A stretch of 64,000 bases of DNA, taken from the IMG/VR virus record IMGVR_UViG_3300023179_000019; one strand, 5' to 3'. Position 1 is the first letter of the stretch. Every line of letters begins with the position of its first letter. A model generated the notes under the pieces. It was not told the DNA's origin. It did no database searches and saw only the letters and a list, made by a program, of their open reading frames with translations. The stretch is from a virus. A program made the position numbers and the translations under genes. Of this stretch, positions 46,393 through 60,694 are shown one piece after another.

Positions 46393-48297
46393 ATGGCCAT
46401 TTCAAATACTAACATTCTGATTAAACGTTCAGGTGTCGGTGGAACAGGACGTCCAAGTTCGCTACTATCTGGTGAATTAGCGTATTCATACGCATCAAAT
46501 ACAATCTTTATCGGTTCTCCAACTGGTAATGGTGTTGTTAATGTTGGCGGTCAATTCTACACTTCACAGATCGATTCCGCAACCGATTCAAATACCGCAA
46601 ACAAACTTGTAAAGCGTGACGCTGACGGTAAATTTGCTGGTCGTTTGACTGGTATCGCAGACAAAGCCGATCAATTAACAAATTCACGTAACTTCTCGAT
46701 TTCTGGTGGTGACATCACCGCAGCTAACGTTGCTTTTGATGGTACTGGTTCAGTTACATTAAGTGCTTCTTTAGATGCTGTTCCTGGTCTTGGTGCTGGT
46801 GCATACGGTTCTACAACAGCTATTCCAGTTATAACAGTTGGTGCAAACGGTCGTGTTCTTGCAATTTCAACATCAACTATTTCAACACAATTTGATATTG
46901 CTGGTGATTCTGGTACAGGAACTATTGAAGGTGGCGAAACTCTAACACTTGCTGGCGGCGAAGGTATCACCACAACAGCTAGCAACAACACAGTTACATT
47001 TGAAGTTGATGATACTGTTATTCGCGCTAACGCCTTTACAGGTGGTCAACAAACAATCAGTACATCATTATTGATTGGTTCTAATAACAGCTTGACTGTT
47101 ACTGGTAACTTGTACGTATATGGTAACACAACAACCGTTGGTACCGATTCGTTAGTTGTTAATGATACAGTTATCTACTTAGGTGCTGGCAACTACTTTG
47201 CTGACGCAAGAGATATCGGTTTTGCTGGTCACTATAATGATGGTGTTAATGCTCACGCTGGTATTATCCGTGACTCCGTAACTAAAGAATTCCATTTCTT
47301 CCAAGGTTACACACCAGAACTTGACGCAAATAACAACATCGACTTGAACGATGCATCATACCGTGAAGCAAACGTTCACTCTGCATACTTCAAGGGTAAC
47401 TTGATTGCTACTACAGCTGTCATCGACAACTTGTCAATGACTAATGCATTAACAGTTGCTAACGGCGGTACAGGTAGAACAACACTCGGTAATGGTCAAA
47501 TCATTATTGGTGCTGGTACAAACGGTGTTAATACTCTTGCCAATTCTTCTGTTTCTGCTGGTCAAAGCTTCGGCGATGCTGCATCGGTTCCAGTATTCAC
47601 AACTGACGTTTGGGGTCGTGTTGCTACTGTAACTAACACATCAATCTCAATTGCTGCTTCACAAGTTACTTCTGGCCAGTTAGCGATTGCTCAAGGTGGT
47701 ACAAACTCCAATACATATGCACAGAACGGTTTGTTGTTCTATAACGGCACATCTTTCTTAACATCTGCTAATCAAACTGCTTACAGTACACAAGGTGGCG
47801 CAAGTTATGTTCCAGTAATTTCTACCAATGAACTTGGTCAAGTTACTTCAATTTCTAACACACAGATTCAAATTGACACTGCCAATATTGTTTCTGGTAC
47901 ATTGGGTTACGGCAGAGGCGGTACAGGTTCTACATCATACACAACAGGTGCATTGCTTGTTGCTGGCGTTTCTGGTCTAGTGTCTGTTGCTAATACAACA
48001 TACGTATTGACTGGCGCACTAGCATCTAATAATACAATCACTTCATTGACTGTTGATGCATATGGTCGTGTAACTGCTGCAAGTGGTGCTGCAATTTCTG
48101 GTCTAACCGTTGCTCAAGGCGGTACAGGTGTTGCAACATTTACAACAAACGGTATCACATATGGTAACGGTACTAATGCGATGGGTGTAACTGCTGCTGC
48201 AGGAGATGCTGATCAGGCATGGTCAAATCAATTCTTGACAGTAACAGCAGCTGGTGTTCCAGTATGGTCATCAGCAATGGATGGTGGAACATTCTAA
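46393..48297 (+). CDS. tail fibre protein
   Basis: IKRS..GELAY N-domain, TVDAYGRVT and VAQGGTG repeats, ends DGGTF. Confidence 0.8.
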   Translation: MAISNTNILIKRSGVGGTGRPSSLLSGELAYSYASNTIFIGSPTGNGVVNVGGQFYTSQIDSATDSNTANKLVKRDADGKFAGRLTGIADKADQLTNSRNFSISGGDITAANVAFDGTGSVTLSASLDAVPGLGAGAYGSTTAIPVITVGANGRVLAISTSTISTQFDIAGDSGTGTIEGGETLTLAGGEGITTTASNNTVTFEVDDTVIRANAFTGGQQTISTSLLIGSNNSLTVTGNLYVYGNTTTVGTDSLVVNDTVIYLGAGNYFADARDIGFAGHYNDGVNAHAGIIRDSVTKEFHFFQGYTPELDANNNIDLNDASYREANVHSAYFKGNLIATTAVIDNLSMTNALTVANGGTGRTTLGNGQIIIGAGTNGVNTLANSSVSAGQSFGDAASVPVFTTDVWGRVATVTNTSISIAASQVTSGQLAIAQGGTNSNTYAQNGLLFYNGTSFLTSANQTAYSTQGGASYVPVISTNELGQVTSISNTQIQIDTANIVSGTLGYGRGGTGSTSYTTGALLVAGVSGLVSVANTTYVLTGALASNNTITSLTVDAYGRVTAASGAAISGLTVAQGGTGVATFTTNGITYGNGTNAMGVTAAAGDADQAWSNQFLTVTAAGVPVWSSAMDGGTF

Positions 48298-48332: not shown

Positions 48333-49172
48333 ATGAGCAATGATAATTATATTAAACATTATGTTGAAATTTTAACTAATACGATGACGGATGCTGTAAT
48401 TAGAAATGTTTCTTTACAGGCAAACGCAAGAATTAGTGATGAAGTTATTGCTGGATTGAATAAAAAAGTTGAGGAATCATTTGCTCAGATTGGAAAGTAT
48501 GAGGAAAAGTCAAGCGGTGAAATTATTAATTTAAAATCATCGCTTGACAACCACCTCAATACGATTACAAGATTAAATAATGAAATTCAAGAACAGAAAC
48601 GTAAGTATGATAATGAAATTCAAGAACAGAAACGTAAGTATGATAATGAAATTCAAGAACAGAAACGTAAGTATGATAATGAAATTCAAGAATGTAAATC
48701 ACAGTATGACAATAAGATTACCAATTTAAATAAATTAGTTGAAGATCAAGCAAATACTATTTCTTCATTAGAGGAAACAATTTCTAATTTCGATATATCT
48801 AAAGAAGAAATTGAAAATTTAAATTCTTATAAAGAAGAATTGAATAAATTAAAAGAAGAAAACAGTAAATTCAATGAATCATATGAATCCAAAATTACTG
48901 AAGCAAGTAGTGGATATGATTCTAAAATTGCAGAAATGCAAAGTGAATATGAGTCTAAAGTTGCAGAAGTTAATAATCAATATGAGTCCAAAATTAAAGA
49001 ATTGACAGAAGCAAATAGTGTATATGAGTCTAAAGTTGCAGAACTTAACCGTGAATATACCAATTTGAAAATGCAAGTACAAACTGTATTGAATAGAACT
49101 CGAACGGATTATGAATCTAGGATTTCACAATTGAATGAAAAAATCAAATCGTTAGAATCTTCCTCTCTTTGA
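48333..49172 (+). CDS. coiled-coil protein with 11-aa repeats
   Basis: NEIQEQKRKYD x3; YESK repeats. Confidence 0.75.
   Translation: MSNDNYIKHYVEILTNTMTDAVIRNVSLQANARISDEVIAGLNKKVEESFAQIGKYEEKSSGEIINLKSSLDNHLNTITRLNNEIQEQKRKYDNEIQEQKRKYDNEIQEQKRKYDNEIQECKSQYDNKITNLNKLVEDQANTISSLEETISNFDISKEEIENLNSYKEELNKLKEENSKFNESYESKITEASSGYDSKIAEMQSEYESKVAEVNNQYESKIKELTEANSVYESKVAELNREYTNLKMQVQTVLNRTRTDYESRISQLNEKIKSLESSSL
48577..48692. repeat. perfect 33-bp tandem repeat x3.5
   Basis: ATAATGAAATTCAAGAACAGAAACGTAAGTATG. Confidence 0.95.
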
Positions 49173-49239: not shown

Positions 49240-50121
49240 ATGTCAACACCTATATCAAACACCACAATACAACTTAAAAAATCCGGCGTATCGGGTAATA
49301 CACCAACATCATTAAATTTTGGAGAGTTGGCGTTAAACTACGCCGATGGAAAGTTATATTATAAAGATGATACTGGTACCATCCGTTACATTAAAAATTC
49401 AAATTCTTTTGCTACAGTAAACGCAAATGCCTCTTTGGTATTAGCTGAGTCAAATAGCGATACTTTGACTTTAACTGCAGCAAACGGTATTGGTATCACA
49501 GCCAACACCATAACAAAAACGATTACAATTGATGATCGTGTCACACAAGACTTAGTTAATGATGTAAATGATTATGCACATTCTGCTTATTATAAAGCAA
49601 ATACTGCGGCTTTACAAATTACTCCTGTTGGTGAAACTGATGATAATGCAAACAATGTTTTTTATGTTGTTTTTAATGATACCAATAGTGGTCCTGCAAA
49701 CACATTGTTCGCAACAGCTAATAATGCTTCAAACAACACTTTAACATTTGTACCTTCTGCTGGAAAAATGGGCGTGAAGTCTATTGGTTTGGCTTCAAAT
49801 ACAATCATTTCTTCAAATAGTGTATTTGTTGCAAATTCTAATTCTATAATAATTGATTCTTTTTCTACAACAGAATACAAAGGTGCTTTCTATCAAGTGC
49901 AAATGTCTAGTCCAGATTATTTTCACTCATTGAATCTTACCGTGATACATGATGGACTTTTCCCAACCATAACAACTTTTGGTGAAGTTTATACAGGTAG
50001 TTTAGGATCATTTTCCGCAGATATATTTGGATCAAATCTAAATGTAATTTTTACTCCTAGAGGAAATTTACCTACAGCGAATCTTGCTACAATTGTATTC
50101 ATCAAAAATGCGATTAGGTAA
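49240..50121 (+). CDS. fibre-like virion protein (paralog A)
   Basis: IQLKKSG..P..L.FGELALNYADGKLYYK. Confidence 0.75.
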   Translation: MSTPISNTTIQLKKSGVSGNTPTSLNFGELALNYADGKLYYKDDTGTIRYIKNSNSFATVNANASLVLAESNSDTLTLTAANGIGITANTITKTITIDDRVTQDLVNDVNDYAHSAYYKANTAALQITPVGETDDNANNVFYVVFNDTNSGPANTLFATANNASNNTLTFVPSAGKMGVKSIGLASNTIISSNSVFVANSNSIIIDSFSTTEYKGAFYQVQMSSPDYFHSLNLTVIHDGLFPTITTFGEVYTGSLGSFSADIFGSNLNVIFTPRGNLPTANLATIVFIKNAIR

Positions 50122-50126
50122 GAAAA

Positions 50127-51104
50127 ATGTCTACCGCAAACACCATACTACAACTTAAAAAATCCGGCACCTCAGGAAACACTCCATCAAATTTGAGTTT
50201 TGGTGAGGTGGCGTTAAATTACGCCGATGGAAAGTTATATTATAAAGATGATGCTGGTGATACAAGCTTTATTAAAAATTCGAATTCTTTTTCTACTATT
50301 GTTGCCAACTCTTATTCTTTAGTTGCAGGCACAAATACTGATGTATTGAATTTAGAATCTGCAAATGGTTCTTATGGTATCGACATAACTGCTAATATAC
50401 AATCAAAAACTATTACGATTGCTGATTCTGATACACAAACGTTAATTGGTGAAGTGAACGACTATGTTGGTTCTGCTTACAATAAAGCAAACAACTTAGC
50501 TGTACATATCGACTCAATTGGAGAAGTTTCTAATACTTATTATATTAGTTTTGCGGCTGATAATAACAATTCGTCAAATATTTTATATACTACCGCAAAC
50601 AGCACTCTGACTTTTAAACCTTCTGAAGGAAGATTAGGTTTAAACTCTGTTGATTTGGCATCAAATACAAATATAGTTGCTAAAACTGTAGTTGTACCAA
50701 ACATTAATCCAATCGTAGTAGATTCATTCTCAATTAATGAATTTAGAAGTGCTTTTTATCAAATACAAATATCAAGCCCAACCTCTTTTCATTATCATTC
50801 ATTAAATTTTAACGTTGTACATGATGGATATTTTCCAATCACATCAACCTTTGGTGAAGTGTATACGGGTAGTTTAGGTTCATTCTATGCAAGTATATTT
50901 GGATCAACATTAGAAGTAACTTTTTATCCTAGTGTGGGTGCTTCAACTGTTGTTTTTACTAGATATGCAGTTGATACAAGTCCTATACAAGGAACTCCAG
51001 AATATTCTATGGGCTCAGTTGGTGATCCTTACACATCAAGATACAATTCGGGATATGTTACAGAATTGTCAACATTGATTTTGGATTATGGCACAGTAAA
51101 TTAA
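50127..51104 (+). CDS. fibre-like virion protein (paralog B)
   Basis: Collinear with 49240 gene along its length, plus C-terminal extension ending LDYG. Confidence 0.75.
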   Translation: MSTANTILQLKKSGTSGNTPSNLSFGEVALNYADGKLYYKDDAGDTSFIKNSNSFSTIVANSYSLVAGTNTDVLNLESANGSYGIDITANIQSKTITIADSDTQTLIGEVNDYVGSAYNKANNLAVHIDSIGEVSNTYYISFAADNNNSSNILYTTANSTLTFKPSEGRLGLNSVDLASNTNIVAKTVVVPNINPIVVDSFSINEFRSAFYQIQISSPTSFHYHSLNFNVVHDGYFPITSTFGEVYTGSLGSFYASIFGSTLEVTFYPSVGASTVVFTRYAVDTSPIQGTPEYSMGSVGDPYTSRYNSGYVTELSTLILDYGTVN

Positions 51105-51138
51105 CAAGAATAAATAAATCAAACTTTAGGGATAAACC

Positions 51139-53415
51139 ATGGCTACACAACTACAATTAAGACGAGGTAATACGGAAGAAACTTTAGCGTTTACCGGCGC
51201 CATTGCTGAAGTTACCGTAGATACGACACAAAACACATTAACTGTACATGATGGTGTAACACCCGGCGGTAATTATTTGATCAACAAAGGTCAATTTGAA
51301 GCAAACGTTACAAATTTGCAAACTTTCGCACAAGCAGCTTACAACGCAGCGAATAGTGCTGGTGGTGATACTGCTTCCGCAAATACTATTATAATTCAAG
51401 GTGTTGATCTTACCCAAAACACCAACATTGCCGCAGTCAACACATATGCTGGTTCAGCTTATGCTGCTGCTAATCTAGCATTAGGTATTGATGCAACACA
51501 GAATACCAATATTACAGCAGTCAACACATATGCTGGAAGTGCTTATGCTGCTGGTAATACTAATGCAACTAATATTACTGCTGTAAATACGTATGCTGGT
51601 TCTGCTTATGCTGCTGGTAACACCAATGCGACAAACATTACTGCTGTAAATACATATGCTGGAAGTGCTTATGCTGCTGGTAACACCAATGCGACCAATA
51701 TTACTGCTGTAAATACGTATGCTGGAAGTGCTTATGCTGCAGCTAATTTGGCATTAGGTATTGATGCAACACAGAACACCAATATTACTGCTGTAAATAC
51801 GTATGCTGCTGGTGCTTATGCTGCTGGTAATACTAATGCAACAAACATTACCGCAGTTAATACATATGCTGGTTCAGCTTATGCTGCTGGTAACACCAAT
51901 GCGACCAATATTACTGCTGTAAATACGTATGCTGCTGGTGCTTATGCTGCTGGTAATACTAATGCAACAAACATTACCGCAGTTAATACATATGCTGCTG
52001 GTGCATATGGTACCGCTAATGCTGTAAATACATATGCTGGTTCAGCTTATGCTGCTGCTAATCTAGCATTAGGTATTGATGCAACACAGAATACCAATAT
52101 TACTGCTGTAAATACATATGCTGGTTCTGCATTTAACAAAGCAAACAATGCACTTCCTTTAACTGGTGGTTCAATATCAGGCAGTATATCGATATCACAA
52201 GATTTATCTGTTACTGGTAACTTAATTATTCTTGGAAATACAACCACACTCAACACATCATCATTTATTGTTTCAGACTCATTGATTCTTTTAGGTAACG
52301 GTAATTACACATCTGATATATTAGATATTGGTTTTGTTGGTCACTACAATGACGGTACTAATGCTCACGCTGGTCTTATCCGTGATGCTGGTAATAAAGA
52401 TTGGTATTTGTTTAAAGGTTATACACCAGAAATTGATGCAAATAATAATGTTGATATCAACCACGCATCATTTAGAAAAGCAAACTTGCAATCAGACTAT
52501 GTTAAATCAAATCTAATTGCAACAACAGCTGTAGTAAATGGATTAGATATTTTCAATTACGTTACTTCTGCTTATGCTGCTGGTAATACTAATGCAACTA
52601 ATATTACTGCTGTAAATACATATGCTGGAAGTGCTTATGGTGTTGCTAATCTAGCATTAGGTATTGATGCAACACAGAATACCAACATCACCACAGCTAA
52701 TAATGCGGCGTGGGCGGCTTATGCTGCTGGTAATACTAATGCGACCAATATTACTGCTGTAAATACCTACGCTGCTTCAGCTTATGCTGCTGCTAATCTA
52801 GCATTAGGTATTGATGCAACACAGAATACCAATATTACAACCGCAAATAATGCGGCGTGGGCGGCTTATGCTGCTGGTAATACTAATGCGACCAATATTA
52901 CTGCTGTAAATACATATGCTGCTGGTGCTTATGCTGCTGGTAATACTAATGCGACCAATATTACTGCTGTAAATACATATGCTGCTGGTGCTTATGCTGC
53001 TGGTAATACTAATGCAACTAATATTACTGCTGTAAATACATATGCTGGAAGTGCTTATGGTGTTGCTAATACTGCTACAAACACTTTAGGTTACACATAT
53101 GTAGCTGCTGGTTCTTACGGTACTGCTACTGCTGTACCTGCACTTACTTTAGCTGCAAACGGTAGGGTTGTTGGTGTAACAAGCACAAACATTCAGTCTG
53201 GTTCAACAACTCAGAGCGGTTTATTACAGTTAATCGATTCTGTTACTTCTACTAGCACAACAACTGCTGGCACACCAAACTCAATTAAGATTGCATACGA
53301 CAGAGCTCAAGCGGCTTTCACAGTTGCAAATTCTGCATCTGCTAATTCTTCATCAAGTTCTGGTGCAAGCTTGGCCCAAGTGATGTTCTGGAGCGGTTTT
53401 GTGTCCGGTTCTTAA
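51139..53415 (+). CDS. long tail fibre with Mtd_N-like N-terminus and repeat stalk
   Basis: QLRRG..FTGA.AEVTVDT..VHDG.T.GG; many NATNITAVNTYAGSAYAAG repeats. Confidence 0.8.
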   Translation: MATQLQLRRGNTEETLAFTGAIAEVTVDTTQNTLTVHDGVTPGGNYLINKGQFEANVTNLQTFAQAAYNAANSAGGDTASANTIIIQGVDLTQNTNIAAVNTYAGSAYAAANLALGIDATQNTNITAVNTYAGSAYAAGNTNATNITAVNTYAGSAYAAGNTNATNITAVNTYAGSAYAAGNTNATNITAVNTYAGSAYAAANLALGIDATQNTNITAVNTYAAGAYAAGNTNATNITAVNTYAGSAYAAGNTNATNITAVNTYAAGAYAAGNTNATNITAVNTYAAGAYGTANAVNTYAGSAYAAANLALGIDATQNTNITAVNTYAGSAFNKANNALPLTGGSISGSISISQDLSVTGNLIILGNTTTLNTSSFIVSDSLILLGNGNYTSDILDIGFVGHYNDGTNAHAGLIRDAGNKDWYLFKGYTPEIDANNNVDINHASFRKANLQSDYVKSNLIATTAVVNGLDIFNYVTSAYAAGNTNATNITAVNTYAGSAYGVANLALGIDATQNTNITTANNAAWAAYAAGNTNATNITAVNTYAASAYAAANLALGIDATQNTNITTANNAAWAAYAAGNTNATNITAVNTYAAGAYAAGNTNATNITAVNTYAAGAYAAGNTNATNITAVNTYAGSAYGVANTATNTLGYTYVAAGSYGTATAVPALTLAANGRVVGVTSTNIQSGSTTQSGLLQLIDSVTSTSTTTAGTPNSIKIAYDRAQAAFTVANSASANSSSSSGASLAQVMFWSGFVSGS
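51415..53070. repeat. 63/84-bp coding repeats in two arrays
   Basis: 21-aa and 28-aa units in arrays at about 51415-52135 and 52565-53070. Confidence 0.85.
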
Positions 53416-53426
53416 TATAAAAAATA

Positions 53427-53434
53427 TATAAATA
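53427..53434 (+). promoter_or_regulatory. T4-type late promoter
   Basis: TATAAATA upstream of the fibre-tip cassette. Confidence 0.75.
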
Positions 53435-53470
53435 TTACTAGACGAGTTCAAATTAACAAGGAGAGCGAAG

Positions 53471-53674
53471 ATGTCTATCAAAATTCAAGGAACAGATGTT
53501 ATTGACGATAGTAAAAATGTCGTCAATATTGTCAACGTAACTGCTTCTACAAACGTGGAAGCAGGTTCTTATGTCACAGCAGCATATTTCAAAGGTGACG
53601 GAAGTCAACTTACAAATGCTGGTGCTTCGATAGACAAAGCCTTCTTTTTAAGCAATCTTTTATCTGGCGGTTAA
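53471..53674 (+). CDS. mini fibre protein
   Basis: AGGAG SD; FKGDGSQLT fibre motif. Confidence 0.7.
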   Translation: MSIKIQGTDVIDDSKNVVNIVNVTASTNVEAGSYVTAAYFKGDGSQLTNAGASIDKAFFLSNLLSGG

Positions 53675-53706
53675 CTTTCTCAAAAAATCCCTATTAGGAG
53701 CAATAA

Positions 53707-54045
53707 ATGGCAACAGGTCTTATTCAACAAAACAACATAACCAGTACAACTTTAACAGCAATTTATAGTGGCGTTCCTGCTACTAAAACTGCTACCGTTA
53801 ACATTTTAATTTGTAATGCAGCTAATAATGCTGCAACAATTACTTTAGGTTTAACTACTGGTACAGTTTCATCTTTAACTGCAAATAGCTATATTGAGTA
53901 CAAAGCAATTTTAGCTCCATTCGAAGTTATGGAAAGAGGCGGTATTGTATTGGCTGCGGGTCAATATGTCTATCTACAAGCAGACAGCAACCCAACAGGC
54001 AGTTCAATTAACTTAGGTACAACAATTACCGGTTACGAGGTATAA
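53707..54045 (+). CDS. small beta-sandwich fibre-tip adaptor (putative)
   Basis: ICN..I.L..YIEY..ER.GIVL.AG; AGGAG SD. Confidence 0.65.
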   Translation: MATGLIQQNNITSTTLTAIYSGVPATKTATVNILICNAANNAATITLGLTTGTVSSLTANSYIEYKAILAPFEVMERGGIVLAAGQYVYLQADSNPTGSSINLGTTITGYEV

Positions 54046-54048
54046 ACT

Positions 54049-55233
54049 ATGTCAAGATATTTAAAAGATTCTTCAGCGCAAAGCTTTAGATTTAAAAAGT
54101 TTTTTACGGAAGCTGGAACTTACAGCATTCAAATTCCGGCCGGTGCAAGAGCGGTAAAAACCATTGTTTTTGGTGGTGGTGGAAATTCTTGTACAACTAC
54201 AATCACCAACTGTAGAGCTCAAACACAACAATGTTGTTGCTGTTGCTGGGTCAGAGGTCACTTCTCTGGTGCAGGTGGCGGCTACACAGAAAAATTATGG
54301 TTAGGTGTAGGCGGCCAAAAGGCTTGTGTGGTTGTTGGTGGTGCAGAAGGAACATCTTCTGTTTGTTTCTGTGGTTATGGATCAATTTCTGCTACGGGCG
54401 GTACAGGTTCAGGAACATCTACAAGAACCATGACAGGTGGATGTGGTACTGGTGGTGATGTCAACGCTTGCGGTAGTCCAGGTTTTTGTCGTTGTACATG
54501 GGGTAACTGTAGATTTGATTGTTGTTATTATGAATGTGTAAGCCCCTCGACAAGCGCCTGTTGGTGTACAGCCATGTGCTCACGTTGTTATTGTGAATTA
54601 ATGGGCGTTCATTTACCTGGTGGAACTCCAGGTAATGCATTATGCAACAGAGTTAACCTATCAGACGATACAACCAACGTTCCTCGTTGTTGCTGTGGTG
54701 GTTTCGGTGGTTATTACTATCAAACGGGCGGTGATAGTCCAGGTTGCGGAAGTTGCGTACAAACACGAAGCAGTTGTGATTTTGACACAACATTTTCATC
54801 AGCATACACTACTGTTCCTGGATACTGCTGGGGATTTCCTTCTTGGTATTGCACTGGTGTCTGGCAAGGCGGCACATTCAGTTGTATAGATCCAGGTTAC
54901 GATTTCGTTTGGGATCCAATCGGAAATTGTTGCTGTACATGTAGTAGAGCTACTGTTACTGCGGCAACTTATTGTACCTTATCTTCTGGTACCGCTTGTA
55001 CTCCTTTTAGTAATACTAATAGTGGCCAGTATTATTGTAACTTCCAGTGTTATTGTTTTGTAAACAGAAACAACGAATCTATAACATCTACTGCTCTTGG
55101 TGCTCCCGGTTATGGTTGCGCTTCTGGTGCTATGGGTGGCGGCGGTGCAGGTATTTGGAACGGCGATCCGACCAGATGTTTGACAGATTACTCCAGATCC
55201 GGCGGTATCGGTCTTGTTGTAATTCACTACTAA
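54049..55233 (+). CDS. Cys-rich glycine-rich-domain adhesin-like protein
   Basis: FT..GT..IP.G..V.GGGG, GAGGGY, GG.GLVVI.Y frame; about 44 Cys by hand count. Confidence 0.7.
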   Translation: MSRYLKDSSAQSFRFKKFFTEAGTYSIQIPAGARAVKTIVFGGGGNSCTTTITNCRAQTQQCCCCCWVRGHFSGAGGGYTEKLWLGVGGQKACVVVGGAEGTSSVCFCGYGSISATGGTGSGTSTRTMTGGCGTGGDVNACGSPGFCRCTWGNCRFDCCYYECVSPSTSACWCTAMCSRCYCELMGVHLPGGTPGNALCNRVNLSDDTTNVPRCCCGGFGGYYYQTGGDSPGCGSCVQTRSSCDFDTTFSSAYTTVPGYCWGFPSWYCTGVWQGGTFSCIDPGYDFVWDPIGNCCCTCSRATVTAATYCTLSSGTACTPFSNTNSGQYYCNFQCYCFVNRNNESITSTALGAPGYGCASGAMGGGGAGIWNGDPTRCLTDYSRSGGIGLVVIHY

Positions 55234-55253
55234 TAGTTAATAGGACTTAAAAA

Positions 55254-55733
55254 ATGAAAAAATTTAGACTTATTCCTTATCACCACGAAGAAAATCATTT
55301 CGAAATAGTTGAAGAACTAATTTTTGAACATGAGTATGCTTTTGAAAGTACTGATCCAACATCAGTATTAACAACTTCTCAAGATTTTGGTCTTAACGAT
55401 GTTGTTGACGGTTCTGGAAATTTGGTTCAAAAGGCTGTAAAGCCTGAACCAACTCCAGAAGATTTTGTTGCAACAGAAACTCCTTCATCAGAGCCTATTG
55501 ACTCAATGTATACTCATGATTATATTCAAGCAGAATTAGCAAAATGCGCTTGGACTTTAGAAAAATTTCCACCAAAAGTAGAGCAATTGAAAAACAATCA
55601 AGAACCTACTTTTATGCCTGATGAAATTAAATCATTGAGCAAAGAGGAAAAAATTGCTTGGTATGAAGAAAAAATAAAAGATGCTCAAGTTCTAGTAACT
55701 TTATTGAATGAAAAACTTGAAAAATTAAATTAA
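55254..55733 (+). CDS. acidic hypothetical protein (possible fibre chaperone)
   Basis: Directly follows adhesin; helical C-terminus. Confidence 0.6.
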   Translation: MKKFRLIPYHHEENHFEIVEELIFEHEYAFESTDPTSVLTTSQDFGLNDVVDGSGNLVQKAVKPEPTPEDFVATETPSSEPIDSMYTHDYIQAELAKCAWTLEKFPPKVEQLKNNQEPTFMPDEIKSLSKEEKIAWYEEKIKDAQVLVTLLNEKLEKLN

Positions 55734-55757
55734 TTTAAAATGTTAGTTGAGGAAATT

Positions 55758-56510
55758 ATGGAAAAATCTGAAATTATATTGACTGAAGATATTAAACATC
55801 ATTTGTTTATAACGTCAACTGAGATTATAGGAGCGAATCGCCTTAATTCTTGTTTTCAGAAATGTAAAAACGTTTCTGTTTTGGAGAAAGACGAAGAACT
55901 CCTATTTTCTCCTCATATGCATACGCCTCCTGTTTTTGAGAATCCAAATTTCTTTATTAAAGAAAGAGAATTACTCGAATCTGGAGATAACACATCATGG
56001 GGAAACAATTCACTTCAATTAGAATTGAATTGGCAAAAAGTAAATAGCGAAGCAAAATTGCGGGTTGGAAAATCAATCTATAACTTTTTAAGACCGCATA
56101 TTTTGCTTGATTATTTTACAAATGCAGGATTCTTAATTGTTGTAAAAAATCCTTACGCTCTAATTCAAGACTTATTGGATCTTTGTCCAGAACTTTCAGA
56201 AGATTTAGACGAACTCGCCGATCATGTTTTACATGGATTAATTATTCAAAGAAAGAATAATTACTTAGTAGGTAACAATTTATCAATTACCTATGAGGAT
56301 ATGGTTACCAGACCTAAGTGGGTAGAAGAAAAAATCAAAGATAAGTATGAGATAGAAGATTTTGAATTTGATTTCGAAGAAACCACATCTAACGAAGATC
56401 AGATTGCAAAATTTACAGACTTTCAAATTGATGTGATTAATGACGTTTTCATTAAAGCTTTAGACACTTTAGAATATTGGGGTTATAAACTCGTAAAGAG
56501 AGAAGATTAG
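55758..56510 (+). CDS. degenerate sulfotransferase-fold protein
   Basis: GKS.YN.LR..L..YF.NA.F..VVKNPYA, ITYEDMV..P, WGY; no RSGT-type PAPS loop. Confidence 0.55.
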   Translation: MEKSEIILTEDIKHHLFITSTEIIGANRLNSCFQKCKNVSVLEKDEELLFSPHMHTPPVFENPNFFIKERELLESGDNTSWGNNSLQLELNWQKVNSEAKLRVGKSIYNFLRPHILLDYFTNAGFLIVVKNPYALIQDLLDLCPELSEDLDELADHVLHGLIIQRKNNYLVGNNLSITYEDMVTRPKWVEEKIKDKYEIEDFEFDFEETTSNEDQIAKFTDFQIDVINDVFIKALDTLEYWGYKLVKRED

Positions 56511-56530
56511 GCAATTTTGTTATAAGTTGA

Positions 56531-56559
56531 TTGACAAAATTATGTTTTTATTGTAAAAT
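56531..56559 (+). promoter_or_regulatory. sigma70-type promoter overlapped by an inverted repeat
   Basis: TTGACA-17-TAAAAT; AATTTTGT...ACAAAATT (56513-56541). Confidence 0.6.
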
Positions 56560-56585
56560 TGAATATTTAATTCTGAGGAAATATT

Positions 56586-57518
56586 ATGTCTTATACTGTT
56601 TTTAGTATTGATGGTGGTGCAGGTCGAGCAATTGCTGCTATTCCTGCACTTATAAAATACCACTACAAAAACCATAATGATGATTTTAAGATTCTTGTGC
56701 ATGGATGGGATACACTATACTGGGGTATTCCTGAATTGCAAGACAGGACTTTTAATCCCGATAACAAAGGCACGTTCGAGAATATCGTTCTCAACTGTAA
56801 CCGTGTCGTAACTCCAGAACCCTACAAACTCCCTTCCTACTTTAAACAAAAGAAGTCTCTAGGTGAGGCTTTCGATGAGATCATTAATGAAACAGATGAT
56901 CATTCCGATTTGGATAAACCAACTATGGTTACAACCAAAATGGAAGAAAAGATGGCATCTAACATCATCTCCGAGGTTAAAAACAAACAGAAAAAAGAAC
57001 TCACAGTTGTTATTCAACCATATGGCCGTGGTGCCAAGGTTGATAATGGCCATGTGATTGATGAAGCTTCACGTTCTTTAGATCCAGATGCGTATCTGTT
57101 GTTAGCTAAAAAATTAGCTACGAAGTATAACCTTATTTATTTTGGAGAAAGACAGTTCGCCATAGAACAAGATACATATACACATAAGATGGAAATGGAC
57201 TTGAGAGGTTGGGCATCGGTTATTCAGTCATCAGATTATTTTGTTGGTTGTGATTCGGTTGGACAATACATGGCAAGATGTTTTAATAAACCGGGAACCG
57301 TAATTTTTGGTTCTACATTCCCAATCAATACATCTTTTCCTGATCATTTTCAAATTATTGAAAAACCAGGAATCAAAAAATATTCACCTATTCGTCTAGT
57401 TGGCCTTGATTGCCATCTTGCGGATAGAATGAATGATACTCTGATGGATTTTACAGATGATGAAATTCATGATATCTTTTTGAAAATTGTTAAAGACATT
57501 GAAAACAAGGTGAAATAA
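56586..57518 (+). CDS. GT9-like (heptosyltransferase-like) glycosyltransferase
   Basis: DGGAGR.I..IPA, VIQPYG, FVGCDSVGQY.A..KP..VIFGST. Confidence 0.75.
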   Translation: MSYTVFSIDGGAGRAIAAIPALIKYHYKNHNDDFKILVHGWDTLYWGIPELQDRTFNPDNKGTFENIVLNCNRVVTPEPYKLPSYFKQKKSLGEAFDEIINETDDHSDLDKPTMVTTKMEEKMASNIISEVKNKQKKELTVVIQPYGRGAKVDNGHVIDEASRSLDPDAYLLLAKKLATKYNLIYFGERQFAIEQDTYTHKMEMDLRGWASVIQSSDYFVGCDSVGQYMARCFNKPGTVIFGSTFPINTSFPDHFQIIEKPGIKKYSPIRLVGLDCHLADRMNDTLMDFTDDEIHDIFLKIVKDIENKVK

Positions 57519-59227
57519 TGAATGTATTAGGAATAAATCCAGGACATAATGGTTCTGCTGCATTAGTCTCTGACAATAAACTTATGTTTTATGTTGAAGA
57601 AGAACGTTTAAGCCGTAACAAATATGACGGTAATCCTTTCCTTGGTATCATGCAGATTATGGAAGATTACCCACTAGATAGAATTATTATTGGTGGAACA
57701 GGCCAAAAAGAATCTTTGGGTACTTTGCCTTGGACAGGTGAGGATCCTTTCACATCATTAATTAGAAAAAAATTAAATACAAATGGTATCGATGTGATGT
57801 ATGCAGGTGAAAGTCACCACGTTGGTCATGCAGCATTATCTTTTTATAATTCGGGTTTCGATAAAGCAATTTCTATTGTAGTTGATGGATGTGGTTCTTT
57901 TACCAGAAATAACGAAAATGGTCTCTGTGGATTTGAAACAGATACAGTTTTTGTTTGTGAGTATCCTAATAAGTTTGAATTAATCAGTAAAAAACTGTGT
58001 TATACTCCTCAACAAAACTCTATGGAATATTTTGATGGCACCTCAGAATATAGTGTAGGTGCTCCCACAGTTAAAGTCTATGAAGGCGTTACAGATTATT
58101 TGGGTTTTGGTTTTATTGAAGCTGGCAAAACAATGGGTTTAGCACCTTACGGTAAACCAGATGAAAACATTCCACAGCTATACATCAATGGTCGTGGCAA
58201 CCAAAACGTATTCATGCCTTTGTATCCTGCTGGAACAAGAATCAACCAGTTACTCAATCCATACCTAAGACAAACTTTTGATCCAAAAGAATGGCATAGA
58301 GATCCAGAAAAGATCCCACAAGTATCCAAAAACTTGGCATACGCAGTTCAAAAAGAATCTCAAGAATTGGTTTTAGAAGCAATCAAAAAAGCAATCGAAT
58401 TAACAGGTATCAAAAAAGTTTGTATCTCTGGTGGTTACGGACTAAATTGTACTGCCAATTACTTCTTTAGAAAGAGCCTTCCATCTGATGTTGAACTTTG
58501 GTGTGAACCAATTTCTCATGATGGTGGTACATCTATTGGTTTGGCTATGATCGCTTGTAGAAACGAAACCCAATCATCTGACGTTTACAAATCAAAATCA
58601 ATTTATCTAGGTAAACAATACGATCCATCAACTTATTTAAATGATGTGAACGAAGATGAATTTGAAATTGAATCTGTAGAACCTAAAGATGTTGCCAAAC
58701 TAATTTCTGATAGAAATATTGTTGCACTTTTCCAGGGTCGTGCTGAAGCAGGTCCTAGAGCTCTAGGTAACAGGTCAATTCTTTATGATCCAAGAGATCC
58801 AGACGGCAAACAATTTGTAAATATTGTCAAAGGTCGTGAATGGTTTAGGCCTTTTGCAGGTTCTATGCTTAAAGAAGATGCTAAACATTGGTTCGATATG
58901 GCCGGAATGGAAGAATCTCCATTCATGATGTATGCTATTGATGTACAGTCTGACAAAGCACATCTGATTCCTTCTATCATCCATGTCGATGACACATGCC
59001 GTATTCAAACTGTTACAAAAGAACAGAATGAACACTATTACAATTTGATTAGTGAATTTAAGAATATCACGGGTGTTCCAATCGTGTTCAATACTAGCTT
59101 TAACTTGGCAGGCGAACCATTGGTAGAAACTATCAAAGATGCGTTACACACACTCAGAAGTTCTAAGATGAACTATCTGTATCTACCAGAGATTGGAAAA
59201 CTTCTGACTAAGAAGGTAAAGAGTTAA
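57518..59227 (+). CDS. carbamoyltransferase (NodU/CmcH/TobZ family)
   Basis: EEERLSR.K, HHVGHA, GKTMGLAPYG, GG.GLNC.AN, GPRALGNRSIL, REWFRPFA, NTSFN. Confidence 0.95.
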   Translation: MNVLGINPGHNGSAALVSDNKLMFYVEEERLSRNKYDGNPFLGIMQIMEDYPLDRIIIGGTGQKESLGTLPWTGEDPFTSLIRKKLNTNGIDVMYAGESHHVGHAALSFYNSGFDKAISIVVDGCGSFTRNNENGLCGFETDTVFVCEYPNKFELISKKLCYTPQQNSMEYFDGTSEYSVGAPTVKVYEGVTDYLGFGFIEAGKTMGLAPYGKPDENIPQLYINGRGNQNVFMPLYPAGTRINQLLNPYLRQTFDPKEWHRDPEKIPQVSKNLAYAVQKESQELVLEAIKKAIELTGIKKVCISGGYGLNCTANYFFRKSLPSDVELWCEPISHDGGTSIGLAMIACRNETQSSDVYKSKSIYLGKQYDPSTYLNDVNEDEFEIESVEPKDVAKLISDRNIVALFQGRAEAGPRALGNRSILYDPRDPDGKQFVNIVKGREWFRPFAGSMLKEDAKHWFDMAGMEESPFMMYAIDVQSDKAHLIPSIIHVDDTCRIQTVTKEQNEHYYNLISEFKNITGVPIVFNTSFNLAGEPLVETIKDALHTLRSSKMNYLYLPEIGKLLTKKVKS

Positions 59228-59831
59228 CAAACTCTAATAAATTTTGAAAGGTTTTGGTTCTCATTCTCAAATCTCGATTGGCGAATGAGTCCAACTTTTC
59301 TAAAGTTTCTTGATAATTACCAGTCTTAACTAAAACAGGTACGCAACCTAAAGAGTTTCCAGCTTTAAGGTTGCGTATTTTATTTCCGACAAAATAACCA
59401 CCTTTAAATTTTATTCTTTGTTCTTTTTCGGCTTTCTTCATCATGCCAGTATTTGGCATAGAATAGATATCTTGTTTCATATTGGTAGTTGAGTACAATA
59501 CACCATCAATACTTTGTATTCCATACTCACCGAATATTTCCATCATACGCATATTTGTACGGTCAACGTCATCTACAGTCAATATTCCCTCACTAATTAA
59601 TGGTTCGTTGAAGAAAATAGAAACCTTGTAACCTTTAAGACGTAAAAGTTTAATGGCTTCTAAAGAACCTTCAACTGGAACAACATCGTCTGGAGTCTTT
59701 ATTTGACACTCACGTAATATTACACCAGTTCTTTCAATAGCAACAACACCGGTATTAAAAACTTCCGGCCAAGGTTCTAAATTCTTGAATCCTGAAACAG
59801 TTGCAATTTTATTATCATATCTTCCCATCAT
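59208..59831 (-). CDS. GmhB/HisB-like HAD IIIA protein with degenerate catalytic motifs
   Basis: GSLEAI..L..KGY, PNTGMM, YFVG, VLVKTG; DxD replaced by ERT. Confidence 0.7.
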   Translation of the reverse strand: MMGRYDNKIATVSGFKNLEPWPEVFNTGVVAIERTGVILRECQIKTPDDVVPVEGSLEAIKLLRLKGYKVSIFFNEPLISEGILTVDDVDRTNMRMMEIFGEYGIQSIDGVLYSTTNMKQDIYSMPNTGMMKKAEKEQRIKFKGGYFVGNKIRNLKAGNSLGCVPVLVKTGNYQETLEKLDSFANRDLRMRTKTFQNLLEFVNSLPS

Positions 59832-59920
59832 TATTCCTTAAACATAAATAGTCCATTACCTCTCATTGTATTATATATTGATCTAAAAAGTCAAATAAAT
59901 ACTAACAAAATGGAATCAAC

Positions 59921-60694
59921 ATGGCCACAATTACCACTAGAGTTGCTTTTAAAGAATATTGTTTACGCAGATTAGGTTTTCCAGTCATCGATATTAACGT
60001 GGATGATGACCAAGTGGAAGACCGAATTGATGATGCCTTACAGTACTGGCAAGATTACCATTTTGATGGTCTACAAAAAGTCTATTACATCAAAAGAGTG
60101 GATCAAACCGATGTTGACCAAAAGTATATAGATTTAAGCAATGTTACCGACAGTTCAAATAACGCACTAGAGATTGTTGGTATATCACGTATATTTCCAA
60201 TTCAAGATTCTCAGGCAACTATTAATATGTTTGACCTTAGATATCAACTAAGATTAAACGAATTGTATGACTTTACATCAGCGTCCTACATCAACTACAC
60301 ACTAACACAACAGCATCTACGTTCATTGGAGTTAATGTTTACTGGAGAAGTTCCTATTCGATTCCAAAGACATATGCGTAGGTTGTACATAGATTGGGCC
60401 TGGGGTTCATCACAATCACCAGTTGGTACTGTGGTAGTTGCCGAAGCTTATGCAAATATCGACCCTACGGTATACACCAGAGTTTGGAATGACCGTTGGT
60501 TGAAAGAATATGCAACTGCTTTAATCAAAAGAAGTTGGGGAAACAACATTAAAAAATTTAATGGACTACAATTGCCTGGCGGTGTTACATTAAATGGTGA
60601 TAAAATTTATAATGAGGCCGTTGCAGAAATTGAAAAACTAGAACAAGAAATGCAAGTTGAATATGGTGCACCACTTGAATGGTTCATGAATTAA
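59921..60694 (+). CDS. gp13: neck protein gp13
   Basis: YCLRRLG.PVI.INVDDDQ, YHFDG, LPGGVTLNG. Confidence 0.95.
   Translation: MATITTRVAFKEYCLRRLGFPVIDINVDDDQVEDRIDDALQYWQDYHFDGLQKVYYIKRVDQTDVDQKYIDLSNVTDSSNNALEIVGISRIFPIQDSQATINMFDLRYQLRLNELYDFTSASYINYTLTQQHLRSLELMFTGEVPIRFQRHMRRLYIDWAWGSSQSPVGTVVVAEAYANIDPTVYTRVWNDRWLKEYATALIKRSWGNNIKKFNGLQLPGGVTLNGDKIYNEAVAEIEKLEQEMQVEYGAPLEWFMN

Follow-up and report, generated by a model that had tools for sequence, protein, structure and literature searches.

A cysteine-rich fibre tip beside a sugar-tailoring enzyme pair in a marine T4-like cyanophage: a candidate system for decorating the virion

What is a bacteriophage doing with a glycosyltransferase and a carbamoyltransferase lodged between its tail-fibre genes and its neck genes? 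The question is raised by a 64,000-nucleotide stretch of viral DNA, IMG/VR virus record IMGVR_UViG_3300023179_000019 (the window, from here on), and by the cassette at its positions 53,427 to 59,831. The genes here encode a small fibre-like protein, an adaptor, a Cys/Gly-rich adhesin tip, an acidic protein, a sulfotransferase-fold (ST-like) protein, a glycosyltransferase (GT), a carbamoyltransferase (CT) and, running the other way, a GmhB-like protein. The window phage is a marine T4-like cyanomyophage, and the region is a predicted receptor-binding tip module with a conserved pair of sugar-tailoring enzymes. The answer we favor, an inferred one to which we give roughly a 45% chance, is that the phage glycosylates and carbamoylates the tip of its own fibre. 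A preliminary description of this DNA had pointed the same way, and its groundwork was sound. All eight of the open reading frames (ORFs) it listed are where it placed them, the adhesin to which it gave about 44 Cys has exactly that number, and its late promoter is an exact T4 late motif. The gene identities it proposed were also borne out: the Cys-rich adhesin by fold, the GT as GT9-like, and the CT as an intact NodU/TobZ-type enzyme with both domains and all motifs kept.

Our argument begins with where these genes sit in other phages (L003-L099 label the loci of relatives; G002 is a complete relative of 168 kb). The order adaptor, Cys-rich tip, ST-like protein, GT, CT, GmhB-like protein is found in six IMG/VR loci, L003-L008, down to 38% identity of the tip, with the acidic ORF also detected in L003-L006. 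P-SSM2 and S-CAM3 have a tail fibre, small ORFs, two to three Cys-rich ORFs, GT and CT, then heptose-pathway genes. The preliminary description had proposed a check for co-occurrence of Cys-rich adhesins with the enzyme pair across phages. We ran it as a survey of 72 further loci with GT homologues, dereplicated at 70% on the GT to 14 lineages with both enzymes (GT-CT) and 14 with GT only. A scripted filter found a Cys/Gly-rich ORF 5′ of the GT in 12 of the 14 GT-CT lineages and in 2 of the 14 GT-only lineages. The two apparent exceptions are L025, whose 500-aa Gly-rich tip lies under the script's Cys filter, and L014, which has a 2630-aa fibre (L014:2053-9945) of 4% Cys and 17.5% Gly. Cys/Gly-rich fibre proteins lie directly 5′ of the enzymes in every GT-CT lineage sampled, and the order tip, GT, CT holds in 14 of 14, P-SSM2 and S-CAM3 included. 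The GT tree shows just two switches of CT adjacency, which leaves the survey with one or two independent contrasts. A naive Fisher test (p = 4e-4) was rejected as proof of coupling, being inflated by this shared ancestry. The linkage of tip, GT and CT is best read, from the sequences compared, as an old retained synteny and not as a repeated independent association.

One version of the cassette is already in the literature. It is the "lipopolysaccharide (LPS) gene" cassette of P-SSM2 and S-CAM3, T4-GC 302-308 (PSSM2_307-313; gp154-148), whose enzymes are 35-36% (GT) and 46-48% (CT) identical to those of the window and follow a tail fibre and Cys-rich ORFs in the same order (PMC1079782, PMC3037559). 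In P-SSM2 and S-CAM3 there are two to three Cys-rich paralogues and the heptose genes come directly 3′ of the CT, whereas the window lineage has beside its CT only a dead GmhB-like gene. The papers on these cyanomyovirus "LPS genes" label the Cys-rich ORFs hypothetical (PMC1079782, PMC3037559).

What, then, is the Cys-rich protein? Its 394 residues include 44 Cys (11.2%) and 65 Gly, with Cys runs CCCCC at 62-66 and CCC at 214 and 294. Pfam, PHROGs and NCBIfam hold no match for it or for its 21 homologues, and the family is small: those 21 in 5.8 billion proteins or, among 1.84 billion representatives, about 10 clusters that are clear at E ≤ 1e-10. A profile of the tip run against the 1.84 billion representatives picked up only 17 proteins at E ≤ 1e-3, one of them a spurious WD40 match. 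A tblastn search of 50,697 phage records found none, possibly because of the low-complexity filter, and neither BLASTP nor hhalign gave a significant match to the syntenic Cys-rich proteins of P-SSM2 and S-CAM3. The profile's single match among PDB sequences was to poly-Gly and was set aside as spurious.

Only the fold search placed the protein. Its AlphaFold2 (AF2) model is confident for the scaffold only (about residues 12-148 and 385-394), and the architecture is that of a TNF-like plus glycine-rich-domain (GRD) scaffold at ~12-148 and 346-394, interrupted by a hypervariable Cys-rich insert at ~149-345. The scaffold matches the cyanophage Pam3 fibre gp24 (7ypx_A; Z 15.0, root-mean-square deviation 2.9, 165 residues), the Bxb1 tail tip (Z 12.1) and the GRD of ALK (Z 7.7-8.7). 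Its matches in BFVD are phage "glycine-rich domain" proteins, at E values down to 2e-12, among them Syn9 gp38 and a P-SSM2 protein. Within the family the N terminus (MSRYLK) is conserved, the middle varies and the C-terminal strand GGxGLVVVxY is kept; of the poly-Gly motifs, FGGGG (41-45), G364-G366 and G368 are invariant and G363 is nearly so. In distant homologues residues 1-148 keep 41-57% identity while 149-345 drop to 12-22%. The Cys sit in the hypervariable loops of the tip. Their share of the protein stays at 8.5-12.5% across the family although their positions change: it is Cys composition that is conserved, not a fixed disulfide framework. Taken with the model, this makes the protein a predicted tail-fibre adhesin tip whose distal loops are enlarged, hypervariable and about 10% Cys. 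Giant relatives also occur directly 5′ of GT and CT, at L011:2302-6678 (1458 aa, 137 Cys, 180 Gly) and L055:5953-9918 (1321 aa, 160 Cys, 176 Gly).

The best known counterpart is Pam3, in which the TNF-like domain and the glycine-rich one form the receptor-binding end of the fibre, its Gly stem conserved and its distal tip variable (PDB 7YPX; PMC9608196). With tips of the Pam3 gp24 and S16 gp38 type the window protein shares the TNF-like β-sandwich, the glycine-rich domain, the poly-Gly stems and the variable distal loops, and with Pam3 gp24 also GGGG motifs near each domain end. The window tip alone has a ~200-residue distal insert of ~11% Cys (the Pam3 paper, PMC9608196, mentions no cysteines or disulfides). 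It is without the long N-terminal helical shaft of the Pam3 type and is preceded instead by separate adaptor proteins. In both phages a protein of ~160 aa is encoded directly 3′ of the tip. In Pam3 this is gp25 (162 aa), a chaperone that the tip needs (PMC9608196). Its counterpart in the window, a 159-aa acidic protein (32 D+E against 16 K+R), finds no match to any family or PDB chain in Pfam, PHROGs and PDB profile searches; its evolution keeps pace with that of the tip (31% identity to L005; ratio of nonsynonymous to synonymous substitution, dN/dS, 0.3-0.5), and an acidic ORF lies 3′ of the L025 tip too. Judged by its position and size, it is likely to be the tip's assembly chaperone. On the other side of the tip, homologues of the 112-aa adaptor come directly 5′ of Cys/Gly-rich tips in L003-L008, P-SSM2, L025, L054-L060 and others, so that this module appears always to precede a Cys-rich tip. 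The 67-aa mini-fibre is kept in L003-L006 (51-100% identity) and has no family match in Pfam or PHROGs.

The two enzymes are easier to place. The AF2 model of the GT has a mean confidence (pLDDT) of 94.6, with a Rossmann core beginning at residue 4, and its top 30 Foldseek matches in the PDB are the GT9 structure 3tov, TibC (4rap/4rb4), WaaC and WaaF, at E values of 1e-9 to 1e-7. By profile, PF01075 is matched by 25 of 38 aligned GT relatives (best E 8e-7) and the window GT itself has no Pfam match at E ≤ 0.01. It does match phrog_8954 (2e-76) and, weakly, the heptosyltransferase III model of NCBIfam (E 0.012 over 40 residues); a GT profile found nothing significant among PDB sequences. The model makes it a predicted GT-B enzyme of the GT9 heptosyltransferase fold. 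One loop of the family has invariant G10, G11, G13 and R14 (GGxGR) and no conserved Asp, and the family has no invariant Cys. We take this loop to be the site of Asp13 in WaaC, an equivalence presumed from sequence and not from a structural alignment. TibC is reported to carry its catalytic Asp (Asp110) after strand 1 (PMC4358343). Among 185,579 species genomes, full-length GT relatives are confined to short or phage-like contigs of metagenome-assembled genomes (MAGs), with no bacterial context. Two such homologues, L098 and L099 (PBPT01000016.1, 335 kb; PBPT01000082.1, 153 kb), are binned as a Neomarinimicrobiota MAG and look like mis-binned jumbo-phage sequence, akin to the 141-328 kb IMG/VR contigs L028-L034.

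The CT matches both of its Pfam domains above their cut-offs (Carbam_trans_C, PF16861, 7e-61, 205 bits; Carbam_trans_N, PF02543, 3e-22, 79.8 bits), as well as phrog_1601 (6e-152). Its motifs HHxxH, GPRALGNRSIL, FRPFA, HVDxTxRxQTV and NTSFN align to those of NovN and of 7xb6, a second solved carbamoyltransferase, and its closest solved relatives by sequence search are NovN, GdmN and TobZ. All this argues for a full-length NodU/CmcH/TobZ-type O-carbamoyltransferase with intact motifs and Kae1-like and YrdC-like domains. The stop codon of the GT gene and the start codon of the CT gene overlap as TAATG, through which the two enzymes appear to be translationally coupled.

How might such a pair serve a fibre tip? 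In the mechanism we propose, the GT would work in the cytoplasm and use ADP-heptose to add heptose to the tip, the donor being supplied by phage kinase, nucleotidyltransferase and epimerase genes (~30 kb off in G002). The CT would then O-carbamoylate the tip sugar, the reaction presumed for WapO on LPS heptose II, while the dead GmhB-like protein, and probably the ST-like protein as well, would persist as binding or scaffold subunits. The Cys of the tip would most likely lock its distal head, by disulfides or metal, after release of the virion; they are probably not the attachment sites. (Erv/ALR, glutaredoxin and DsbA family genes were not found in G002, in a search made uninformative by an Erv control that matched nowhere.) We prefer decoration of the tip because the enzymes hold an invariant position beside it and because there are two precedents, TibC with TibA and the glycosylated virions of mycobacteriophages. 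In its most specific form the proposal is of a dedicated, virus-only system for post-translational tailoring of the tips in T4-like marine phages, in which a divergent GT9 enzyme, having Arg where an Asp base is usual, heptosylates the tip and its coupled CT carbamoylates the sugar, with sulfation and hydroxylation added in relatives and the dead GmhB-like and ST-like proteins acting as binding or assembly subunits. We regard that fuller version as possible but less likely than not.

The tibC-tibA and aah-aidA pairs each place a heptosyltransferase beside its own adhesin, TibA or AIDA-I (PDB 4RAP/4RB4; PMC4358343). The phage GT shares with TibC and Aah a GT-B heptosyltransferase-type fold and a gene adjoining that of a Gly-rich adhesin, and a mode of action like theirs would mean modification in the cytoplasm with ADP-heptose as donor. 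Unlike TibC, the phage enzyme (310 aa) has no extra modules and no conserved Asp in the catalytic-base loop, and it is known from sequence and a model. We considered and rejected its assignment to the bacterial autotransporter heptosyltransferases of the TibC/Aah type, since it has no N-terminal β-barrel, β-hairpin thumb or four-Cys iron finger. In mycobacteriophages, phage-encoded enzymes glycosylate the virion (Freeman et al. 2023, as cited in PMC12801897). There too, by the account in PMC12801897, phage glycosyltransferase genes adjoin structural genes, and their products decorate the phage's own virion proteins. That system uses other GT families on capsid and tail-tube targets in phages of Gram-positive-type hosts and was established by experiment, whereas the window cassette is known from its genes.

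A sugar must also come from somewhere. About 30 kb from the cassette, G002 carries genes for a CTP_transf_like nucleotidyltransferase, a PfkB kinase, a cupin and an NAD-epimerase, none of which is in the 64-kb window. A second carbamoyltransferase-like ORF (310 aa, N-domain only) lies just 5′ of these nucleoside diphosphate (NDP)-sugar genes, at G002:36965-40663 (L089; also L091/L092). GmhA was not found in G002 by searches with SIS_2 and the P-SSM2 protein, of which SIS_2 also missed loci where tblastn finds the P-SSM2 homologue. Some relatives carry further tailoring genes. Between tip and GT, L007 (11500-15031) encodes a true sulfotransferase (E 1e-15), a 438-aa fusion of an ST-like domain to an Asp/Asn β-hydroxylase domain, and a 283-aa P-loop protein like adenosine 5′-phosphosulfate kinase with a weak nucleotidyltransferase motif. 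This insert points to supply of 3′-phosphoadenosine 5′-phosphosulfate (PAPS) and to hydroxylation of a protein or lipid type. The extra genes of L014 are for a sulfotransferase, an FkbM methyltransferase and a GT4 enzyme. Supply and tailoring genes together suggest a decorated heptose-type glycan, such as WaaC/WaaF and WapO (PA5005) make in Pseudomonas, where the known LPS inner-core product is 7-O-carbamoyl-heptose and WapO is the putative carbamoyltransferase (PMC8005017). Pseudomonas and the cassette alike pair a GT9 enzyme with a carbamoyltransferase of the NodU family, together with genes for ADP-heptose supply. The bacterial enzymes act on the Kdo-lipid A of their own LPS, whereas the cassette genes are viral, lie inside a fibre module and include a highly divergent GT.

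Two members of the cassette look like enzymes that have ceased to be enzymes. The preliminary description had called one a sulfotransferase-fold protein and the other a GmhB-like gene; the fold of the first stands but its PAPS-binding motifs are eroded, and the second is indeed convergent and of HAD-IIIA homology but with every catalytic motif replaced. The ST-like structure in ESM Atlas matches Sulfotransfer_3 clusters (TM 0.81), and the protein touches the Pfam family Sulfotransfer_3 (PF13469) at E 0.0036, below the cut-off. Sulfotransferases bind PAPS through a 5′-phosphosulfate-binding loop, P-K/R-S-G-S/T-T, and through an Arg and a Ser of the 3′-phosphate-binding motif. The window protein has STEIIGANR where canonical phage neighbours have LPRSGSTLL, and its KNPYALIQD aligns to RNPYAMAES of L007/L008 (R to K, S to D), so the motifs appear to have been lost in this lineage. 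Its true start is probably Met7, at 55758, and the annotated start (55740-55757) too early, because L003 has a stop codon upstream and begins at the matching Met. The GmhB-like ORF overlaps the 3′ end of the CT gene by 20 bp. It matches NF006506 (2.7e-22; its 79 bits fall short of the equivalog cut-off of 178 bits) and PDB 4pnh (2e-12), yet its HAD motifs I-IV read ERTG, FNEP, sMPN and GNKIRN against DRDG, sNQ, aKPN and GDxxxD in 4pnh and L008-L013. The canonical residues are kept in the more distant L008-L013, L047 and L072, and L007 is intermediate. Against close relatives its dN/dS is 0.04-0.06; it appears to be a retained pseudo-enzyme, bare of every HAD catalytic motif but under strong purifying selection.

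Rates of evolution and promoters divide the cassette in two. The late motif, TATAAATA, sits 37 nt 5′ of the 67-aa ORF inside a 55-bp gap and is one of five exact copies in the window, all on the + strand. The best σ70-type site in 48-61 kb (TTGACA-17-TAAAAT, 11/12) falls in the 76-bp gap before the GT gene and the second best (TTGACT-18-TACAAT, 10/12) before the GmhB-like gene. The diverged L005 and L006 conserve the GmhB-like promoter and have TTGACA-17-TACAAT before the GT, where P-SSM2 has TTGACT-17-TATAAT. Other lineages have terminators or late-like ATAAATA motifs in that place, and the timing of GT expression may therefore differ by lineage. The adaptor, tip, acidic and ST-like genes show dN/dS of 0.2-0.5 and identities to L005 of 31-51% (for the ST-like gene the L003 comparison was excluded, owing to the difference in start codon). 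The GT, CT and GmhB-like genes show 0.04-0.06 and 71-82%, near gp13 and gp14; taken singly, the GT gives 0.05 and the CT 0.05-0.06. The cassette thus reads as two units with the break in rate at the promoter boundary, a fast tip unit with a T4 late promoter and a slow one of GT-CT and GmhB-like genes with σ70-type promoters.

Several of these observations count against decoration of the tip. The GT-CT and GmhB-like genes stand behind early-type promoters, apart from the late tip unit. Enzymes at a dN/dS of 0.05 next to a tip unit at 0.2-0.5 are no harder to reconcile with a conserved acceptor than with a hypervariable one. The GT has GGxGR where WaaC and TibC reportedly hold a catalytic Asp (the WaaC placement being presumed from sequence). 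The donor pathway is incomplete, with GmhB catalysis lost in the window lineage and GmhA not found in G002, a weak absence given its search. The synteny, with its two changes of CT adjacency, supplies one or two contrasts. GT9 homologues without a CT also lie near fibres, and those fibre proteins are less Cys-rich. Finally, fibre genes and "LPS" genes are both known to gather in the fibre region of cyano- and pelagimyophages, a hot-spot (PMC7029224).

Several of these points lead straight to the strongest competitor, remodeling of the host envelope. Here an early, σ70-driven GT9 and CT add carbamoylated heptose to a lipid-linked glycan or LPS-like molecule of the host and so mask the receptor of the tip; the effect would be superinfection exclusion, or progeny kept off debris, and tip and enzymes would be linked through the same receptor. 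It would explain why the two best σ70-type sites lie exactly before the GT and GmhB-like genes and are conserved in diverged relatives, and why these enzymes evolve like core genes, which implies a conserved acceptor. A GT9 with a NodU-like CT and heptose genes is also the LPS inner-core set of Pseudomonas, WaaC/WaaF plus WapO (PMC8005017), and the literature treats genes of this kind as LPS or cell-wall genes (PMC1079782; PMC3037559; PMC7029224; PMC12801897). It is a serious contender that we nonetheless rank below decoration of the tip. Several other lineages have late-like ATAAATA motifs or terminators, and not σ70 sites, before the GT; remodeling does not need enzymes whose genes, in each GT-CT lineage, lie strictly and directly 3′ of those for the tip and the acidic protein; and the GT family is without the conserved catalytic Asp loop of the LPS heptosyltransferases. 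The LPS of marine Synechococcus is, reportedly, without heptose and Kdo, in which case the canonical WaaC-type acceptor may be absent.

It is less probable again that tip and enzymes have no functional coupling and merely share a hypervariable host-recognition hot-spot, from the fibres to gp13, with the enzymes acting elsewhere, for instance on a small molecule or on a different protein of the virion or the host. With only two changes of CT adjacency on the GT tree, most of the association could go back to a single ancestral arrangement. The literature documents the region as a hot-spot that holds unrelated glycosyltransferases and metabolic genes (PMC7029224; PMC3037559), and the two units have separate promoters and sharply different rates. 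Yet this gene order persists where GT identity is down to 34-37% and the tip sequence has turned over in full (by BLASTP the tips of the window and of P-SSM2/S-CAM3 have no similarity), and it holds on contigs of very different size and gene content, where hot-spot shuffling would be expected to break it.

The preliminary description had also raised the Cys residues themselves as the modified sites. They would be S-heptosylated, or S-carbamoylated in the way that HypF acts on HypE. Many thiol acceptor sites would suit a Cys content held at 8.5-12.5% while positions shift, and the GT does have an invariant Arg where related enzymes have an Asp base (again on the presumed mapping). HypF-type S-carbamoylation and S-glycosylated bacteriocins both exist. 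Such conservation of composition is, however, equally expected of variable surface proteins knotted by disulfides or metal; GT9 homologues also accompany fibre proteins of 0.3-4% Cys; and NovN, GdmN and TobZ are all O-carbamoyltransferases acting on the hydroxyls of small molecules or sugars. We consider modification of Cys very unlikely. Carbamoylation of DNA, the other alternative it offered, in which the CT would turn 5-hydroxymethylcytosine of the phage genome into 5-carbamoyloxymethylcytosine, has a known phage enzyme in its favor (Yang et al. 2021/2022, as cited in bioRxiv 10.1101/2024.12.05.627091) but can scarcely be credited when PF00303 (the thymidylate-synthase-family dCMP hydroxymethylase) is unmatched in the 100%-complete G002, the CT always comes coupled to a GT9 and in linkage with NDP-heptose genes, which lie 3′ of it in other lineages, and the second CT-like ORF of G002 sits beside NDP-sugar genes.

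The features of the locus are collected in Table 1. The window has a G+C content of ~35% and contains a block of T4-like structural genes; the cassette is bounded by three fibre genes (49240-53415) on one side and by gp13, gp14 and gp15 on the other, with a small ORF and then an open-ended ORF at the window end following gp15. Its only DNA matches are to myoviruses of marine Synechococcus and Prochlorococcus, which align at 65-70% identity and over little but the CT gene; the records nearest to it are IMG/VR fragments together with the complete relative G002. The fibre genes upstream have features of their own. The 758-aa fibre gene contains long tandem repeat arrays of 63, 126 and 273 bp, 80-94% identical (51424-53117), which encode NITAVNTYAGSAYAAGNTNAT-type units and are a likely place of length variation. 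Before it, neighbouring genes (49240-51104) encode two fibre paralogues, 293 and 325 aa long and 52-54% identical, which at their N termini are similar to the ORF at 46393 and to the 758-aa fibre. A 279-aa ORF 5′ of the fibres holds perfect 33-bp tandem repeats (48577-49001; 3.5 copies, YDNEIQEQKRK) and a second, degenerate 33-bp array, which suggests a coiled-coil, fibritin-like protein of variable length.

Table 1. Features of the tip and sugar-tailoring cassette and its borders, in window coordinates.
Feature	Position	Strand	Basis or remark
758-aa repeat-rich tail fibre before the cassette	51139..53415	+	Mtd_N N-terminal domain 5.7e-8; phrog_9648 tail protein
T4-type late promoter motif TATAAATA	53427..53434	+	exact match, ahead of tip unit
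67-aa small fibre-like protein ("mini-fibre")	53471..53674	+	ORF; kept in L003-L006
112-aa fibre module ("adaptor")	53707..54045	+	phrog_11338 tail fiber 1.5e-5; Big_12 2.5e-4 (weak)
394-aa Cys/Gly-rich adhesin tip (predicted)	54049..55233	+	TNF-like + glycine-rich-domain scaffold
159-aa acidic protein, inferred tip chaperone	55254..55733	+	position, size, charge only
256-aa ST-like protein, eroded PAPS motifs	55740..56510	+	structure match Sulfotransfer_3
σ70-type promoter TTGACA-17-TAAAAT	56531..56559	+	in 76-bp gap 5′ of GT gene
310-aa predicted GT-B glycosyltransferase, GT9 (heptosyltransferase) kind	56586..57518	+	AF2 model + Foldseek
569-aa predicted NodU/CmcH/TobZ-type O-carbamoyltransferase	57518..59227	+	both Pfam domains
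207-aa GmhB-like HAD-IIIA putative pseudo-enzyme	59208..59831	-	NF006506 2.7e-22; convergent with CT
σ70-type promoter TTGACT-18-TACAAT for GmhB-like gene	59865..59894	-	second-best site in region
gp13 neck protein closing the cassette	59921..60694	+	phrog_211 head-tail adaptor Ad2 1.7e-41

Whatever its target, the cassette sets some puzzles in protein evolution: Cys held at 8.5-12.5% while its positions drift, a GmhB-derived pseudo-enzyme under purifying selection, and a GT9 family without the usual catalytic Asp. Its larger interest is biological. Fibre tips decide which picocyanobacteria a cyanophage can kill. Should the enzymes prove to act on the host envelope, a lytic phage would here be carrying a system that masks receptors. 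If instead phage enzymes add heptose and carbamoyl groups to the tips, host range would hang on a concealed layer of chemistry besides protein sequence, and widespread, so-called LPS metabolic genes would become genes of virion maturation. For phages of Gram-negative-type hosts this would also be the first known system of virion glycosylation, and it would offer a new means of tuning host range.

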